A program made the position numbers and the translations under genes. Below, piece after piece: positions 2,244-48,156 of a stretch of DNA of 64,000 nt. The notes under the pieces are model-generated. The model saw nothing but the letters and a program-made list of their open reading frames with translations, did not search any database and was not told the origin of the DNA. The DNA is from Octopus vulgaris (taxonomy: Eukaryota), in contig OX597817.1 in the NCBI GenBank assembly GCA_951406725.2, positions 25,544,001 through 25,608,000 of the forward strand. The letters run 5' to 3'. Position 1 is the first letter of the stretch. Each line of letters begins with the position of its first letter.

Positions 2244-2444
2244 TACCATCTTGCATTTTCATGTAGTTTACCATTCAAATCTTCATCCATTTCATTATGC
2301 AAAGTGCTTATGTCATGCATGTGCACTAGGTTTCTAAACATACTTGCGAGCTGTGCAAACATGCTGTTTAACTAAGATGGTATACGTACTTCTGTAGTGT
2401 TTCCATAATCGTACACATATTAAATTGTAAATATATTAGTATAT

Positions 2445-2828
2445 TACTCTTTTACTTGTTTCAGTCATTTGACTGCGGCCATGCTGGAGCACCGCCTTTA
2501 GTCGAGCAACTCGACCTCGGGACTTATTCTTTTTGTAAGCCCAGTACTTATTCTATCGGTCTCTTTTTGCCGAACCGCTAAGTGACGGGGACGTAAACAC
2601 ACCAGCATCGGTTGTCAAGCAATGCTAAGGGGACAAACACAGACACACAAACACACACACATACATATATATATATATACATATATACGACAGGCTTCTT
2701 TCAGTTTCCGTCTACCAAATTCACTCACAAGGCATTGGTCGGCCCGGGGCTATAGCAGAAGACACTTGCCCAAGATGCCACGCAGTGGGACTGAACCCGG
2801 AACCATGTGGTTGGTTAGCAAGCTACTT
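2445..2828 (-). mobile_element. SINE family A (tRNA head, CORE-like motif), 3' part of the copy split by the Tx1 LINE
   Basis: Matches the ~400-bp repeat present about 20 times in the window; has CTTGGGCAAGT (CORE-like), a central (TA)/(TG) tract and an AAAAGAGT tail; head continues at 8538-8577. Confidence 0.9.
2813..2828. repeat. Left target-site duplication of the LINE (GGTTAGCAAGCTACTT)
   Basis: Identical 16-mer at 8538-8553; removing 2829-8553 restores the SINE consensus ...TTGGTTAGCAAGCTACTTACCACACAGCC... Confidence 0.95.
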
Positions 2829-3038
2829 TATTTCATGAAAGATTCGCCATTAAGGCGTTACATAGAGGGGACATACAATTACAGACAAACATATAGGGTG
2901 TAGTAGCTTAAAACGTTGGTGATTACAATAAAATATATATAATATTTACAATATAAAGTTTTTAAAATTAGGTATTATACAGTAGGGCACGGATCCCAGC
3001 CATCTGGGTAGAACCTTTACTTCTTGATCCGGCCACAC

Positions 3039-6000
3039 TTACCTGGTGCCAGATATACGCAGCTTGCATGCTACAGACTTCCATCTTTTCGCAAACATGT
3101 CTCGTGACAGACACCTCTTCTCCAGCCTGATCTTACTACCGAGGTGGTAACTGAAAAAGTTAACCAACCCCTGGCCGGATACAAAGGTCCCTGTCACTAT
3201 ACCTTTCGTACGCGTCTTCCATACTGTTTCTTTCAGTATGGCTACTACGCAGGAAAAACAAGCCTTCCTTTCCCTGCTGAGGAAAGGAGGTGGCACAATC
3301 TCAATGATAGACTCCGCTGATAGCTGTACTCTTCCATTCACTGACAACAGTTGTTCGGCGAAAGCAATCAGTCCCGATAACTCCGGACACTCCACGAATG
3401 CGTGCAAGACGGTTTCCCTATCCTGCTCACATCGCGGACATGTCGGCGAGACGGCACTTCCGTGCCTTGACAGCTTGTCGCGAACAGGTAACGCCGCACG
3501 GAAACACTGCCAGGCCAGGGATTTCTGGTAATTATCCAGGTACCCCGGCCCGAACGTTCTCCGGAACAGGTTGGTCAACTGATTTTCATCGTAGCCCAGG
3601 GTCTCCCCCAAGGCGTCTTCGGACTTAAACTCCACTAACCCGCTATAGAAATCCGCGGTGGAACTCCTGTTGCCGGCATTGCCCGCCCGAGAGAGTAGTT
3701 GAAGTGCCTGACGGCACTCCAATTGCCAGTCCCCCAGCCTAGGTCTCTGCTTGATCCAATTACCAATGTCCGTTAAGGACGTTAATCGCGGAAAGTAGAA
3801 CCGAACGTGCGGTGACCACACCTGTTCTCCATCCAAGTAAAGCCAGAGGTGCCTCAACCTTAACGCGACCTTTCGCATCTTCAGCCAAGGCATCCCTAGC
3901 CCACCCTTTAGCGGTTTCTGGCAGCAGACAGAGCGCTTTACAAGTGGCTTCCCTCCTTTCCACAAAAAGTGGAAAAGGATTCTCTCCAACTTGTTCAGCC
4001 ACAAATCGGGGCAAGGCACCACGGTCAGGCGGTAGGTGACTACTGATGCTATGAACATCTGCACCACCTCCGCCCTCCCTAGCAAGGATAACGCCCGTCC
4101 AGACCAGGTCTGGGTTAGAGCGGTCACCTTGCCGGCTACCTCACTCCAATTTTTCTCTATCTGGAGGTCTGGCCCGAACCAGACTCCGAGCAGCTTAACA
4201 GGACCTTCCGTCCAACGCCCCACTACGTTATTGGACGGTATCAGCTTGCCCCTCCAGGTGCCGAGTTGCAAACCGACCGACTTGTCCTTGTTCACCTTTG
4301 CTCCTGCCACCGCCTCGTAGCTTTTGATGGCCTCTTCCACCACTGGAAGCTGGTCCTCAACTGCCACGATGATTGAGATGTCATCCGCGTACACCGTAGC
4401 TCCTCTTCCACACCATAGATCATGCGGTGCGCCCCCTATTGCCTCCAACTTCCGTAGCAAAGGCTCAAGAGCCAACACATATAGAAGCGGGGACAGGGGA
4501 CACCCCTGACGGACTGAACGCTCGATCCTGAACGGCTTCGAAAGAGAGCCGTTCACCTTGACCACAGACTCGATGTCGCTATACAAAGCAGCGATCCAAC
4601 CTCGAAAGATCGGGCCCAGGCCAGCCTCCCCGAGGACCGCCGCCAAGTACCGATGGTCGACCCTATCAAATGCCTTAGACTGGTCTAAATGTACCAGTGC
4701 CCCTCCTGCGCCAGAAAGCTTCCCGACCCGCTCTAAGGAATAGCGTATAAGGTGGAGATTGTCGTGTATCGTCCTGCCCGGGATAGCGCACGTTTGCGCT
4801 TCTCCGACAAGTTTATCCACGACCCGCGCCAACCTTTTCGCCAGCACCTTTGCCAAAATCTTTAACTCTGTGTTCAGCAGAGTTATGGGCCTGAAGTTGC
4901 CTATCTCGTCCCCCTTGCTCGGGTCCTTCCTGATTAACGTCACCACACCCCGGCTCGCAGACTTGGGAATTTTCCCATTCTGCTGCCAGTTGGTGAAGAC
5001 GCCAGCCAGCAGGTGTCCGAACAAGTCTGGCATACTTTTAAAAAACTCATAGGGCAGACCATCGAGACCCGGCGACTTCTCCCCGGGGCACTCGCCCAAC
5101 GCCTCGATTACTTCCTCGGTTGTGATTGGCCCCTCACAGCACTCAGCCTCTCGTGCCGAGAGACGCGGGCCACCAGACAGGAAGTCCCTAAGGGCCTCAC
5201 CATGATCCAGCGTCCCGCACCTCCCGAACAACTCGGCGAAGTGCTTGTAAAGTGCCTCACACATCTCGTCCCGCTCCTTCACCGTGCATCCGTTTCCGTC
5301 AACAAGAGACCTAATTGTGGAATTGTTGCCACGCTGGGTTTCTACCGTACGGGCCCATCCAGCAACATTAATTCCCTCGCGGCCCAATGTTCGTACTTTA
5401 GCCCGGATTCTACACCCCTCATGTTTGGTTTTGAGGTGACGGTCTAATGCCGTTCTCACCGCCAAAATGTGAGATGCAGAGCCCAACCTCAACGCCTCCT
5501 CTAACTTCTTTGCAAATTACTCTTCTATTCTAGCCCTATCTAGTCTTAGTTGCTTACTAAACCTAATGGACTCGAATCGAATGGCTCTTTTCAGGGCGAA
5601 CCACCACCGGTTGTTAACCACTCCTCCGGTTAACGCCCTCTGCACTAACTCCTTAATCCGACTGCGGTATGCCTCACAAGTCAAAATAGACTTGTTTAGC
5701 TTCCAGTAGCCGTTTCCTATCTTTAGTGTGCTATCTATGTCCAGTCTACACTTGACCATTCTATGGTCCGTATAGGGTACCTGGACAAGCTGTGGACAAC
5801 TAAAACTAGATTTATCTCTAGTTCTTATCACTATCCTGTCTAGATAAGACTTGAACCTTCCGTCGCCACTCATCCAGGTCCACTCTGGGACGTTCGGATG
5901 GTCAAGTCTGTAACGATCTGCCAGCTGAAACCGCTTAAGCAGGTCCACGAGACGTGAGTTCACTTTCCTATGGATCGAGCCAACACTATCGATGTGTACG

Positions 6001-6440
6001 TCAACGATAGCATTAAAGTCTCCTAATACTACTAAAGTCTTCGACGTCACGAGAAAGTTCTCTAGGCGCCGATAAAAATCAGTTTGGAAGCCTCTAGCAC
6101 AAGGTGCATAGAGTCCGATCAACCTGAAGGCCTTACTGCTGTGTGTCACATCAAGGACGACCAGCCCACCTTCAGGGTCCACATAGACTGTACTTGTCTG
6201 CAGAGCCAAGCTTTTACGGATCAGTACCACTACGCCCCCTCGTCCTCCGGTCTGACCGGGAGACATGATTTTCTCGTAGTCATTCAGGAGAGGCGAGAAG
6301 GCTTGTAGACCGTCCAGCTTGGTCTCTGTAGCAACCATCACATGCATATCATGTGATCTGAGATCGTCGAGGAAACACGCCTGCTTCCACTTCGAACTCA
6401 AACCACGCACATTCAAACAACCAAGGTTAAGAGATGCCAT
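3039..6440 (-). pseudogene. LINE ORF2 (APE endonuclease + reverse transcriptase + zf-RVT), ~1133 codons, with one in-frame TAA at 5517-5519
   Basis: APE motifs LNVRGL, ETK, GDFN, YLDRI, TDH; RT motifs KSPGLDG, NFRPITLLN, DQSKAFDRV, VRQGCPLSP, YADD; CPRC..ETVLH..VEC. The track ORFs 5517-6440 and 3039-5492 share a frame and join as ...RARIEE*FAKKLEEALRLGSA... Confidence 0.93.
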
Positions 6441-6705
6441 TACAAAAAGTAAAGGTTCTACTTACATTTCTTTGAAGATGTGGGGCATGACCTCACCACA
6501 CGTGGATCCGTCCCCTTCTTCTCCTCTCTCTCTTCGCGTAATTCGGTAAATCCGCGATCTTCCATATGGCCTTCTGGTTCCTGTCCTTTAGTTCCCGGTA
6601 TAGGGGTTCTTCTATCATTGCACTCATGGTGTTGGATGTTCAGTGTAGTATTTTTGTGTTTTACAGTCTCGTCATTTGTATACGTGTCTGTCGTATCGTG
6701 TTCTA

Positions 6706-7872
6706 TTAACATAGCATTTTTGTTTTCTTCCGGGACAGATGGGCAGGGTTTCTTTTTTGTTGTCTGTGGTGCGTTTTTTCTGTTTTGTGTGGGGGATATG
6801 GTCTACGGGAACGTTTCTTTCCCACTGGTGTGAATCCACCCTCTGAAACCTCCATGGTGTTATCTGAGGGGCTGGTGGCAGTTTCTTTCGGCGCAGTGTT
6901 TTCCGTTGGTGCCGGGTCTTCCGAGGGGGTTGGGTCATTTTGTTTATGTAGGGACTTGTGCGTGCCGGGGCTGGGTTTTTCTGTGCTTTGTTTGGGGACT
7001 AGCACCTCAACAACGGGGGTGGGAGTTTTTGTGTTTGTGGGGGCTGGTGTGTTTGCGGGGGCGGGGTTTTTTTGGTTATTTGAGGGGCCTGGTGTTTGCA
7101 ACAACTTTTTTTTTTCTTCACAGTCAGCTCGAATGTGGCCCTTTTTTCCGCAATGGTAACAAGTGGGCTTACGGCCTTCCACATGTACCCTAAGAGCCAC
7201 ATTCTCCCCAACGAGTACTCTCTCTGGTAGGGCCTTAATGTCCTCCTGTTTTCCTTGTATTAAAACCGTTATGTTCCGCCCTAACCACAGCCGTTGGGCG
7301 GAACATGTGGTCTGTAATATGTTTATCCGGTCCGTCCTATTAAACAACAGGCCGGCCACCACCTCTTTCGGGTCTACTTTGGGTGGGATTTCATTAATCC
7401 TTACACGGGATGTTCGTCGCCCCATGTACGTTGGAAAAAGTACCACTTCCTTGGTCTTCAGGGGGGACACGGAGTGCCCGCGAGCCACCTTTTCCTCTGC
7501 GAATTGAACCTCAACGGATCCGTATGCCCGTCCCCTCGAGATATACACTATATCCTTCCATATCGGAGCTAGGCATATTTCTATAGTTTCCTTCCCGAAG
7601 TGCTTAAACCTTTTGTCTTGTGGGCAGAAGGTTTTAAACACCACGGTCCTCTTTTCCGTTTCTAGCACGGTGGAGGAGGGCGATATCACAACATCACCTC
7701 CCTCCTCCTTCATTCTTTTAAAATATCTCTGCAGCATGTCTGCAGAGATATCTATATTTTCGGTTGCTACTTCTGCAACTGCCGAAAACTTTTTAACAGC
7801 GTTGGCGCAATTGCCAACATCAACATTGCTCTCTTCAAGAGTAGATTTCTCATGTATTATTTCAACCGACAT
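6706..7872 (-). CDS. LINE ORF1 gag-like nucleic-acid-binding protein with CX2CX4HX4C zinc knuckle (C-terminus possibly frameshifted)
   Basis: First ATG at 7872 in ACCATG context (the track start at 7899 is TTG); CYHCGKKGHIRADC knuckle; RRM-like segment; P/T-rich tail and GFTPVGKKRSRR basic motif typical of Tx1 ORF1. Confidence 0.85.
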   Translation of the reverse strand: MSVEIIHEKSTLEESNVDVGNCANAVKKFSAVAEVATENIDISADMLQRYFKRMKEEGGDVVISPSSTVLETEKRTVVFKTFCPQDKRFKHFGKETIEICLAPIWKDIVYISRGRAYGSVEVQFAEEKVARGHSVSPLKTKEVVLFPTYMGRRTSRVRINEIPPKVDPKEVVAGLLFNRTDRINILQTTCSAQRLWLGRNITVLIQGKQEDIKALPERVLVGENVALRVHVEGRKPTCYHCGKKGHIRADCEEKKKLLQTPGPSNNQKNPAPANTPAPTNTKTPTPVVEVLVPKQSTEKPSPGTHKSLHKQNDPTPSEDPAPTENTAPKETATSPSDNTMEVSEGGFTPVGKKRSRRPYPPHKTEKTHHRQQKRNPAHLSRKKTKMLC

Positions 7873-8537
7873 GGTTGAAAAGTAATTGGTTTCCCACAAA
7901 ACTGGGAGACCTTTCGAAAAAAAGAAATTATCCTCTCACAGAGGACAAAAGTAATTAATTTTTTTTTTTTTTTTTTTTTTTTTAATGTTCGCAGTCCCAC
8001 GTTCAAATCCCACCCCCGCTGGGGGGTGAGACGTAGCAACAAAGTCTACGACGATTTGAAATTAATATTTCCACCAAAGCGAAATCCCCAAAAAGGGAAA
8101 CCTATATTTTTTCCAAAACACGACGACGACAGTTCAAATCTCGCCCGTGCTACGGGCGGATGTCACAATAGAGCCTACAATGGCTAAAGTTTAATTTTTT
8201 CACAACAGTTTGCTATCCCAAAAACGGAAAGCCTATAATATTTTTTTTTTTTTTTCTTCTTAATAAGGATAACAGTTCAAATGCCACCCCCGCCGGGGGG
8301 GGAGGGCACGACAATAAAGCCTACAACGGCTTTAACAAGTTCAACAATATTAATAAATTCAATATTAATCACTTCAGTCTTACAACAATTACTTTTTCCC
8401 GTCACCGGGAAAAAAGTACAAAAATTCACAGAGTTCACAAAAATATTCAACAACAAACGTTGAACAGCAGAAAAATTATCCACGTGCGATAACACGTGTG
8501 ACTCACCGCCAAAAAAAACACGTCCGACTTCGACGAA
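7873..8537 (-). promoter_or_regulatory. LINE 5' UTR with three diverged ~130-143-bp monomers (putative internal promoter)
   Basis: GTTCAAAT plus a GC hairpin plus an AAGCCTACAA-like motif recur at 8001, 8132 and 8275, separated by T-runs. Confidence 0.6.
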
Positions 8538-8577
8538 GGTTAGCAAGCTACTTACCACACAGCCACTCCTGCGCCTA
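8538..8577 (-). mobile_element. 5' head of the split family-A SINE (right TSD 8538-8553 plus A-box)
   Basis: Minus strand TAGGCGCAGGAGTGGCTGTGTGGTAAGTAGCTTGCTAACC matches the family-A head. Confidence 0.93.
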
Positions 8578-9059: not shown

Positions 9060-10818
<1,759 letters not shown>

Positions 10819-12679: not shown

Positions 12680-13043
12680 CGGGTAAAAACCACCAATAGA
12701 AGAGAATATGACCAAAAACTGTGTGTACTCCATCCCGTGCAGCTGTGATAGGTTATATAAAGGCGAAACATGCCACCCCCTCAAAATAAGGGTAGAGGTA
12801 CATAGCAAAGCTGTGACACAAGATATTGATAAATTGGGTATAGCTGATCATGTATGGAAAAATGGAGATCACCTTCCCCTGTGGGATGAAATTATAGACA
12901 GAGGACACCACTGGAAAATACGGAAACTAGAAGAAGCAGCACATATGCTAGGACACAACTACCTCCTAAGCAGACCAAATGCAGATATGAATAGCATATG
13001 GGAACCAGTATTAAGGAAGGATAGGAAAATATTAGATTTATAA
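12680..13043 (+). pseudogene. Penelope-like element GIY-YIG endonuclease C-terminal fragment
   Basis: CVYSIPCSCDRLYKGET..PLKIR..VH...GIADH...H..LW...RKLEEA matches the PLE GIY-YIG pattern; no upstream RT, so 5'-truncated. Confidence 0.8.
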
Positions 13044-25950: not shown

Positions 25951-26632
25951 TTTTTATGGAAAATTGACAAACCATGAAATATGTATTGATTATCCATTTA
26001 AGTTAAGTTAAGTTAATTATTTGGCTCAAAAAGCAAAAAGCAAGGCCATGTAGGGGGACATGGAGTTATGTACAGGGTGGTGTTCATGCAAAGAGTTCAG
26101 GCCATTTGTGGTCAAGGGAGACTTTGAACCGAGCGGTCGTTGGCATCTTCACTATCTCGTCCGGCAGCTTATTCCACGGATCTGCAACCCGGACGGAGAA
26201 AGCCCCTCTCTATTCTCTAGAAAAACGACGACGCCGTGGTGATCTCATTCTTGCTCACAACATCATAAGCGGAAAGTGTAACCTCTCAAAAGAGCTGTTC
26301 TTCACTCCTGCTCCAGAGCGTCGGCTGCGGGGTCACTCTGAAAAGCTCTATCTGTGACGATTTCATCTCAATCAAAGGAGAGGGGCTTTCTCCGTCCGGG
26401 TTGCAGATCCGTGGAATAAGCTGCCAGACGAGATAGTGAAGATGCTGACAACCGCTCGGTTCAAAGTCTCGCTTGACCACAAATGGCCTGAACTCTTTGC
26501 ATGAACACCACCCTGTACATAACTCCATGTCCCCCTACATGGCCTTGCTTTTTGCTCTTTGAGCCAAATAATTAACTTAACTTAAATGGATAATCAATAC
26601 ATATTTCATGGTTTGTCAATTTTCCATAAAAA
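25951..26632. repeat. Large palindrome (arms 25951-26210 and 26378-26632) built from a CR1-like LINE 3' end plus flank
   Basis: Arms are reverse complements with a few substitutions; 167-bp spacer. Confidence 0.9.
26208..26585 (+). mobile_element. 5'-truncated CR1-clade LINE 3' end with (AACTT)n tail
   Basis: LYSLEKRRRRGDLI...RGHSEKL...R.AFSVRV..PWNKLP.EIV...FKVSLD matches the CR1 ORF2 C-terminal signature. Confidence 0.8.
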
Positions 26633-47128: not shown

Positions 47129-47738
47129 GTAAGGCGAGCTGGCGGACACGTTAGCACGCCGGGCGAAATGCTTAGCGGTATTTCGTCTGCCGTTACGTTC
47201 TGAGTTCAAGTTCCACCGAAGTCAACTTTGTCTTTCATCCTTTCGGAGTCGATAAATTAAGTACCAGTTACGCACTGGGGTCGATGTAATTGACTTAATA
47301 CCTATGTCTGTCCTTGTTTGTCCACTCTGTGTTTAGCCCCTTGTGGGTAATAAAGAAATAGGTATTTCGTCTGACGTTACATTCTGAGTTCAAGTTCCGC
47401 CAAGGTCAACTTTGCCTTTCATCCTTTCGGGGTCGATAAATTAAGTACCAGTTACGCACTGGGGTCGATGTAATCGACTTAATACCTATGTCTGTCCTTG
47501 TTTGTCCGCTCTGTGTCTAGCCCCTTGTGGGTAATAAAGAAATAGGTATTTTGTCTGTCGTTACATTCTGAGTTCAAGTTCCACCGAGGTCAACTTTGCC
47601 TTTCATCCTTTCGGGGTCGATAAATTAAGTACCAGTTATGCACTGGGGTCGATGTAATCATGTAATCGACTTAATCCGTTTGTCTGTCCTTGTTTGTCCC
47701 CTCTGTATGTAGCCCCTTGTGGGTAGTAAAGAAATAGG
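47129..47738 (+). mobile_element. SINE family B with three tandem ~184-bp bodies inside one 13-bp TSD
   Basis: Units start GGTATTT(C/T)GTCTG at ~47177, 47361 and 47545; TSD TATATATTTTCTT at 47116-47128 and 47739-47751. Confidence 0.9.
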
Positions 47739-48156
47739 TATATATTTTCTTATTTGCTCCTTCTGGTATACTGAGAGTATATTTTGGACATCAGCACCAC
47801 CATCATAGGCCTCTTACCAGCTACTTCTACCCACCCTTTTATAATGCAAGGTAGCCATATACAGTGGCAGATAGGGTCTGAAAAAATATTGGTTGCCAGG
47901 AAACTACGGGGCCAACACACAACTCAAGGGGGCCCACCTGCAACTACAATGCTATCACTCATTTTCTTTTCTTTATTAAAAGTATTCTTTTCAACTGTCT
48001 ACAAATACAGCTGGGCTGAAATAATGAATGCATTCTTCCAGAAGTCAATAAAAAATTCTCAAATTTGAGGGGATGGGCTCCTTAGATACTAACATAAGCC
48101 CCAACATATAGATTCTAATGGTGCAGGGGCCCACTTGCCATCGGGCAAACTGGCCA

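Follow-up and report, generated by a model that had tools for sequence, protein, structure and literature searches.

A LINE Lineage of Octopus vulgaris with High Specificity for One Position in a tRNA-Like SINE

Introduction

Among the LINEs of the Tx1 clade, Dewa and Mutsu are elements with a multicopy target, and ORF1 of this clade typically carries a CCHC knuckle; in mammalian L1, the 3′ joint typically has a poly(A) tail. In the consulted portions of the literature, on which the citations here and below rest, Tx1 elements are described as targeting DNA transposons, LTR elements, U2, and microsatellites, and a target preference is attributed to elements of which more than 20% of copies share a type of flank (PMC4494074). 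For R1Bm, SART1, and R2, downstream target sequence aids accurate priming, and target-like sequence is known from a 3′ UTR (PMC7265360, PMC5035012). The 2026 repeat annotation of Octopus vulgaris reports 13 recently active L1-Tx1 families, and the words "target" and "nested" are absent from the consulted portion of that paper (PMC13282606). We did not find a SINE-targeting LINE in a literature search that covered the main texts of mostly open-access papers. Here, we describe a LINE nested in a SINE of O. vulgaris, identified in a window of 64,000 nucleotides (the whole stretch of DNA that was analyzed), and its relatives in the 2.8 Gb, 227-contig genome that was searched. The system is a real target variant of a known strategy that has probably gone unpublished so far.

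Results

The window contains a full-length, Tx1-like LINE of the L1 group (2829..8537; 5,709 bp) that has no poly(A) and a 3′ end in ...GAAATA; this element, its target SINE, and their parts described below all lie on the minus strand. ORF1 (6706..7872) encodes a gag-like protein of 388 aa in which the CCHC knuckle typical for Tx1 ORF1 is present as a zf-CCHC domain match. ORF2 (3039..6440) encodes an AP endonuclease, a reverse transcriptase with YADD, and a zf-RVT (Pfam: Exo_endo_phos, RVT_1, and zf-RVT) and contains one in-frame TAA at 5517-5519; a copy on C2 that is 99.1% identical to the window LINE has an open frame of 1133 aa. The best solved match of ORF2 is L1 ORF2p (E 8e-66), with R2 at only 8e-22. 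By its domains, the window LINE belongs to the L1 group of APE-type non-LTR retrotransposons, and copies of the lineage show the 5′ truncation and target-site duplications that define this group; no poly(A) is present at the 3′ joint in the lineage tails displayed. Assignment to the Tx1 clade is plausible. No Tx1-named relative was returned by the protein atlas, the cluster names, or the homolog search, and the sole named relative is an Argonauta hians protein (60% identical). The 5′ UTR (7873..8537) contains three units (8001-8030, 8132-8161, and 8275-8304; starts spaced 131 and 143 bp), each composed of a B-box-like motif on the plus strand, antisense to the LINE, and then a GC-rich hairpin. 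A role as TFIIIC sites or as promoter monomers is conceivable for these units.

The LINE splits the SINE in the same orientation, as originally noted: excising 2829-8553 rejoins a 5′ head (8554-8577) with a body (approximately 2443-2828). The head, recognized by sequence, contains an A-box-like 11-mer (8555-8565), and the insertion point is one base past this 11-mer. The body (2443..2828) contains a B-box-like motif (2787-2797), a (TA)n/(TG)n middle, and a short repeat tail and is a member of the youngest SINE subfamily. The likeness of the head to a tRNA-Lys locus of the same genome is weak (alignment 13.5, shuffle maximum 11.5); A and B boxes are recognizable, yet ARAGORN and Rfam call no tRNA. 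Approximately 20 intact heads are present in the window, and BLAST matches to the SINE cover 13% of it, microsatellite hits included; the share estimated originally was about one-eighth. The SINE subfamilies are diverged by 13.3%, 5.1%, and 2.6% (12, 53, and 23 copies, respectively) and differ at target positions +4, +13, and +14. The tails of the target SINE finish in short AAAAGAGT-type repeats, and 0 of 110 scorable tails were followed by the target, a result that lends no support to mobilization of this SINE by the LINE through a shared tail and target. Self-targeting by the SINE was likewise absent from these 110 tails and from 74 regex-matched heads. By eye, loci L056 and L077 have a second SINE head beside a LINE.

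A search of the genome with the LINE 3′ end, followed by tabulation of the flanks, reveals that the lineage is specific for the SINE and that its flanks are not an unrelated assortment. AAG(A/T)AG directly follows 604 of 780 lineage tails genome-wide (4 and 0 in the reversed control). Exact AAGTAG directly follows the 3′ end in 36 of the best 40 of 284 candidates; among 39 non-window copies, 29 enter the SINE body, eight are on-site stacks or have a head upstream, one is off-target, and one is ambiguous, and the 5′ ends of these copies adjoin a SINE head (33/39) or a stacked tail (1/39). Loci found via the LINE 5′ end, which are partly the same loci, adjoin a head or stacked tail in 26 of 30 cases. 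A sample independent of the 3′ end was taken by endonuclease search (60 sequences fetched from 150 scored of 8,558 candidates); 19 of these are broken or outgroup sequences and 41 have a lineage tail, which is followed by the SINE body in 40 copies and by the target and another copy in one. A single flank type is thus present in far more than 20% of copies, including all 41 tail-bearing copies of the independent sample. The junction 16-mer occurs 1,299 times genome-wide versus 62 times reversed. Seventeen of the first 100 tails listed are misses: eight are decayed on-site copies, seven lie at non-SINE sites, one is in mid-SINE, and one is in reverse orientation in the head. Locus L203 is a reverse-orientation insertion at the quasi-palindromic SINE site.

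By chance, an insertion would fall on the exact base and strand with a probability of approximately 1.6e-4 or less, and high specificity of the lineage for one base and one orientation in the SINE is strongly supported. Chance nesting of the LINE in the SINE, a caveat raised originally, is refuted. Elements of the sister lineage (approximately 60% ORF2 identity), which end in AATAAAGAAA, were at the SINE site in 0 of 30 cases and have varied flanks. Subsets of these elements share other repeated flanks (L237, L239, L240, L243, and L245; L241 and L244; L251 and L263), perhaps reflecting weak preferences for other repeats.

We counted at least 71,120 intact empty SINE sites and approximately 1,300 exact filled junctions, an occupancy of approximately 2% or less. 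Inactivation of the SINE Pol III promoter had been proposed as a consequence of insertion; the A-box and B-box are indeed parted in each filled copy, but family-wide silencing is excluded because filled junctions are so few relative to empty sites. The abundant SINE may serve the LINE as a "safe harbor".

The absence of poly(A) at the LINE terminus stands, and the position of the terminus can be refined. Off-target copies run directly from GAAATA into ATGT, GAGT, or CAGT, flanks that open with an NWGT-like core; because the off-target flanks start there, we conclude that the element ends at GAAATA and that the final AA of AATAAA belongs to the target. Off-target and truncated copies (L211, L212, L213, L215, L220, and L229) have true duplications of 14-17 bp, among them some with variants particular to the locus in both flanks; in other truncated copies the duplication is shorter or up to approximately 20 bp of the head is deleted.

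Full-length copies differ from this pattern. Six of 27 full-length family-B copies are informative in that the 3′ target copy differs from the element type; in five of them the 5′ copy is of the element type (differences at +11 to +16), and the remaining one has a +8 variant on both sides. Recurrent 17-nt 5′ forms common to several loci point in the same direction. The 5′ "duplication" of full-length copies is, then, partly carried by the element. This bears on the two 16-mers that flank the window LINE (2813-2828 and 8538-8553), which are perfectly alike and extendable on neither side: the exact match noted originally is confirmed, but since full-length copies carry an element-type 5′ target it is not readable alone as a true duplication, and it fits either origin. 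The 3′ 16-mer (2813..2828; target bases +1 to +16) is genuine SINE sequence, and at the position of the 5′ 16-mer (8538..8553) sister full-length copies are element-type from position 11 onward. The 3′ target copies match the SINE subfamily of the body downstream. We found no RNA-templated target base in the 3′ copy (discordance 8/42 in filled vs. 3/18 in empty sites), and two copies with a rare +8 base, considered as candidates for such templating, are not sisters (one shared variant). Among short read contigs, one covers the LINE 3′ UTR with one difference, in a run that is only guessed to be RNA, and none bridges the junction in the three organisms sampled.

The tail of the window LINE contains a motif (2902..2909) that is the complement of positions +2 to +9 of the target. 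In the lineage, this motif is AGCT(A/T)C and the complementarity extends over target bases 1-9; it is present in 99 of 115 lineage tails, versus 3.5% in shuffles, and in 0 of 30 tails of the sister lineage (outgroup). Its position, 25-75 nt from the end, is kept in otherwise unrelated tails. Among 305 passenger tails, the first 100 were tallied by hand for motif and site, with a result of 74 TAC/AAGTAG, 14 TTC/AAGAAG, 1 TTC/AAGTAG, and 11 TAC/AAGAAG pairs. A set of 15 AAGAAG-site copies, selected with another pattern, has 12 AGCTTC motifs, two decayed T forms, one truncated tail, and no AGCTAC; the 15 copies represent 11 independent loci, given that five are one duplicated locus (C14). This filled SINE locus (L306-L310) is present in five near-identical copies, a segmental duplication. 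Autonomous-type T tails are at AAGAAG in four of four cases. The 11 discordant AGCTAC/AAGAAG cases all belong to one passenger family, and five loci of the same kind were found in another sample; because this family keeps AGCTAC at AAGAAG sites, perfect pairing is not required. With the exception of this family, the tail motif covaries with target base +4, a covariation among copies that are not independent and behind which there are perhaps two or three evolutionary switches. Given that the motif changed when the site changed, there is a hint in these sequences of RNA-assisted targeting via the tail. A fold of the tail with 20 nt of read-through predicts a 9-bp stem that is not more stable than those of shuffles (z -1.15).

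The site is common to family A (the family of the window LINE), family B, older families, and ORF1-only passengers, which form head-to-tail stacks. Family B is larger and young, most of its copies differing by less than 1% from the column majority, and its tail pattern is also present in a passenger family. The passengers are 1.2-3 kb in length and have no ORF2; in L231, L232, L224, L300, and L302-L304, ORF1 is 25-35% identical. Passenger L231 opens with the 5′ end of the window LINE family. Older families are found at the old SINE variant (AAGAAG) and young families at AAGTAG; family B is on the youngest variant in 29 of 36 copies versus 18 of 67 local empty sites. In the endonuclease tree, the order is nonspecific relatives, AAGAAG-site copies, and AAGTAG-site copies, which agrees with the divergence of the SINE subfamilies. 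The SINE-targeting group has a support of 0.96 and several internal supports are below 0.85, in a query-anchored tree of 240 columns with unnamed relatives and target labels taken from few, decayed copies. The endonucleases are 60-96% identical across the nonspecific and SINE-specific families.

The window also contains a second SINE (47135-47745) that is stacked head to tail three times, the stacking site lying within its own head, and that has a tail closely like that of the nonspecific sister LINE and part of the window LINE 3′ UTR. This SINE, which is distinct from the target SINE, is likely LINE-tailed and self-nesting. A MITE-like unit of approximately 130 bp is present as inverted and direct repeats beside (TA)n runs (9190-9480 and 9870-10000), and short open frames at 12687-13043 and 26007-26357 are reminiscent of fragments of other retroelements.

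Discussion

We consider it probable that an APE/RT LINE lineage and its ORF1-only passengers insert at one base of the SINE by means of an endonuclease nick and pairing between RNA and target. The most likely mechanism is target-primed reverse transcription at the nick with RNA-target pairing at both ends, in which the RNA steps are modeled by analogy on R1Bm and SART1 (PMC7265360) and R2 (PMC5035012). The APE domain would nick the bottom strand between GGT and AAG(T/A) and the top strand approximately 16 nt downstream. If the AA of the target completes the AATAAA signal, transcripts would end in target sequence that can pair with the primer, and priming from this paired read-through end could yield the precise, poly(A)-free 3′ joints. 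The tail motif may find its pairing partner in this read-through end or in the displaced top strand. At the other end, full-length cDNA would end in target-like sequence and anneal to the overhang, by which the site would be regenerated and stacks made possible. The lineage appears to have followed the SINE in this way through the turnover of its subfamilies.

Recognition may be by protein only, in which case the site is read by the endonuclease, to which other domains perhaps contribute, and the tail motif is protein-binding or structural, its match to the target being historical or incidental. We regard this as a tentative but serious possibility: nicking by Tx1L-EN in vitro is almost entirely confined to its target, so protein alone can be specific (PMC1950540), and in the octopus elements the hairpin-loop region differs between nonspecific and SINE-specific families, a short NWGT core is common to off-target sites, one copy is reversed at the quasi-palindrome, and motif-site complementarity is broken in one family. 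Against protein-only recognition, the motif is absent from all 30 nonspecific relatives, recurs at a constrained distance in tails that are otherwise unrelated, and changes together with the site in autonomous and passenger families alike. The converse proposal, that target choice is partly written in RNA through the antisense motif of 8-9 nt, the poly(A) signal completed by the site, rebuilding of the site at the 5′ end, and re-aiming of the lineage through RNA changes that matched the turnover of the SINE, is, in our estimation, rather doubtful. If it is true, only correctly placed copies would breed true.

An arms race, in which new SINE subfamilies escaped the LINE and the LINE readapted, is improbable. 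Three of nine subfamily-diagnostic SINE changes fall within the 16-bp target and the young family B prefers the youngest variant, but the excess of change at the target is not significant (p 0.06), occupancy is low, and the order of families is explained by plain tracking of abundant new sequence. That the true target is a tRNA gene, with the SINE as by-catch, was an alternative named originally and has fared badly enough for us to consider it very improbable: the SINE head is weakly like tRNA-Lys loci and tRNA-specific non-LTR elements exist (PMC4640811), but none of the examined junctions is a tRNA gene, the flanks are SINE bodies, the target changes with the SINE subfamily, and the tRNA loci in a small sample (30 loci of eight anticodon types, from 34 matches among 63 scored candidates) have 3-6 mismatches to the target 12-mer. 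An inherited junction, by which the SINE body is the LINE 3′ end or else duplication or 3′ transduction dispersed joint LINE-SINE units, would account for the lack of intervening poly(A) and for the five copies of the C14 unit but is refuted by the 5′ junctions, at which 5′-truncated copies of many lengths meet the head of the SINE through duplications or small deletions of their own, and is the least credible reading given that flanks beyond the SINE are unrelated, sister LINE copies lie in different SINE subfamilies, and lineage tails are also found at non-SINE sites with true duplications.

Ordinarily, SINEs exploit LINEs; in a LINE lineage that targets a SINE, this relation is turned around. 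One genome holds a dated series of nonspecific relatives, old-variant families, and new-variant families with nearly the same endonuclease, which makes testable how AP endonuclease retrotransposons gain and change specificity and how much of it is contributed by protein or RNA. Should targeting be guided by the tail motif, the motif would offer a compact means of inserting genes at specific sites. For work on octopus genomes, the consequence is that the number of LINEs, their nesting, and the ages of SINEs are bound up with one another at a single site.

The closest parallels are Tx1L in Tx1D of Xenopus and the crocodilian Tx1-Mar, Tx1-8_Crp, Tx1-4_AMi, and Tx1-9_AMi, which, like the octopus LINE, are APE-type LINEs that prefer another transposon (PMC4494074, PMC1950540). 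Nonautonomous passengers that share the target are also common to both, as exemplified by SINEU in the Tx1 systems (PMC4494074). However, the targets of Tx1L and the crocodilian elements are DNA transposons or LTR elements and that of the octopus lineage is a tRNA-like SINE; Tx1-Mar uses two regions of Mariner-N4, whereas the octopus lineage uses one base and one orientation (PMC4494074). ORF1-only passengers and a target-complementary tail motif further distinguish the octopus lineage from these systems. Annealing between RNA and target has been proposed for R1Bm, SART1, and 28S-tailed fish R2, as we propose for the octopus lineage (PMC7265360, PMC5035012); these elements belong to other clades, and their sequences are target-sense and pair with the primer strand, whereas the octopus motif has an antisense orientation relative to the top strand and shows covariation with a target base. 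Dada elements insert into Pol III genes at the A-box or close to it, much as the octopus LINE lies next to the A-box-like sequence of its target, but are DNA transposons in real tRNA genes rather than a LINE in a SINE (PMC8869645). Finally, Keno (U2 snRNA) and Kibi and Koshi (microsatellites) share with the octopus lineage the use of a multicopy target (PMC4494074); they insert into conserved genes of the host or into simple repeats, in contrast to the octopus target, which is itself mobile and turning over and whose variants are followed by the LINE.
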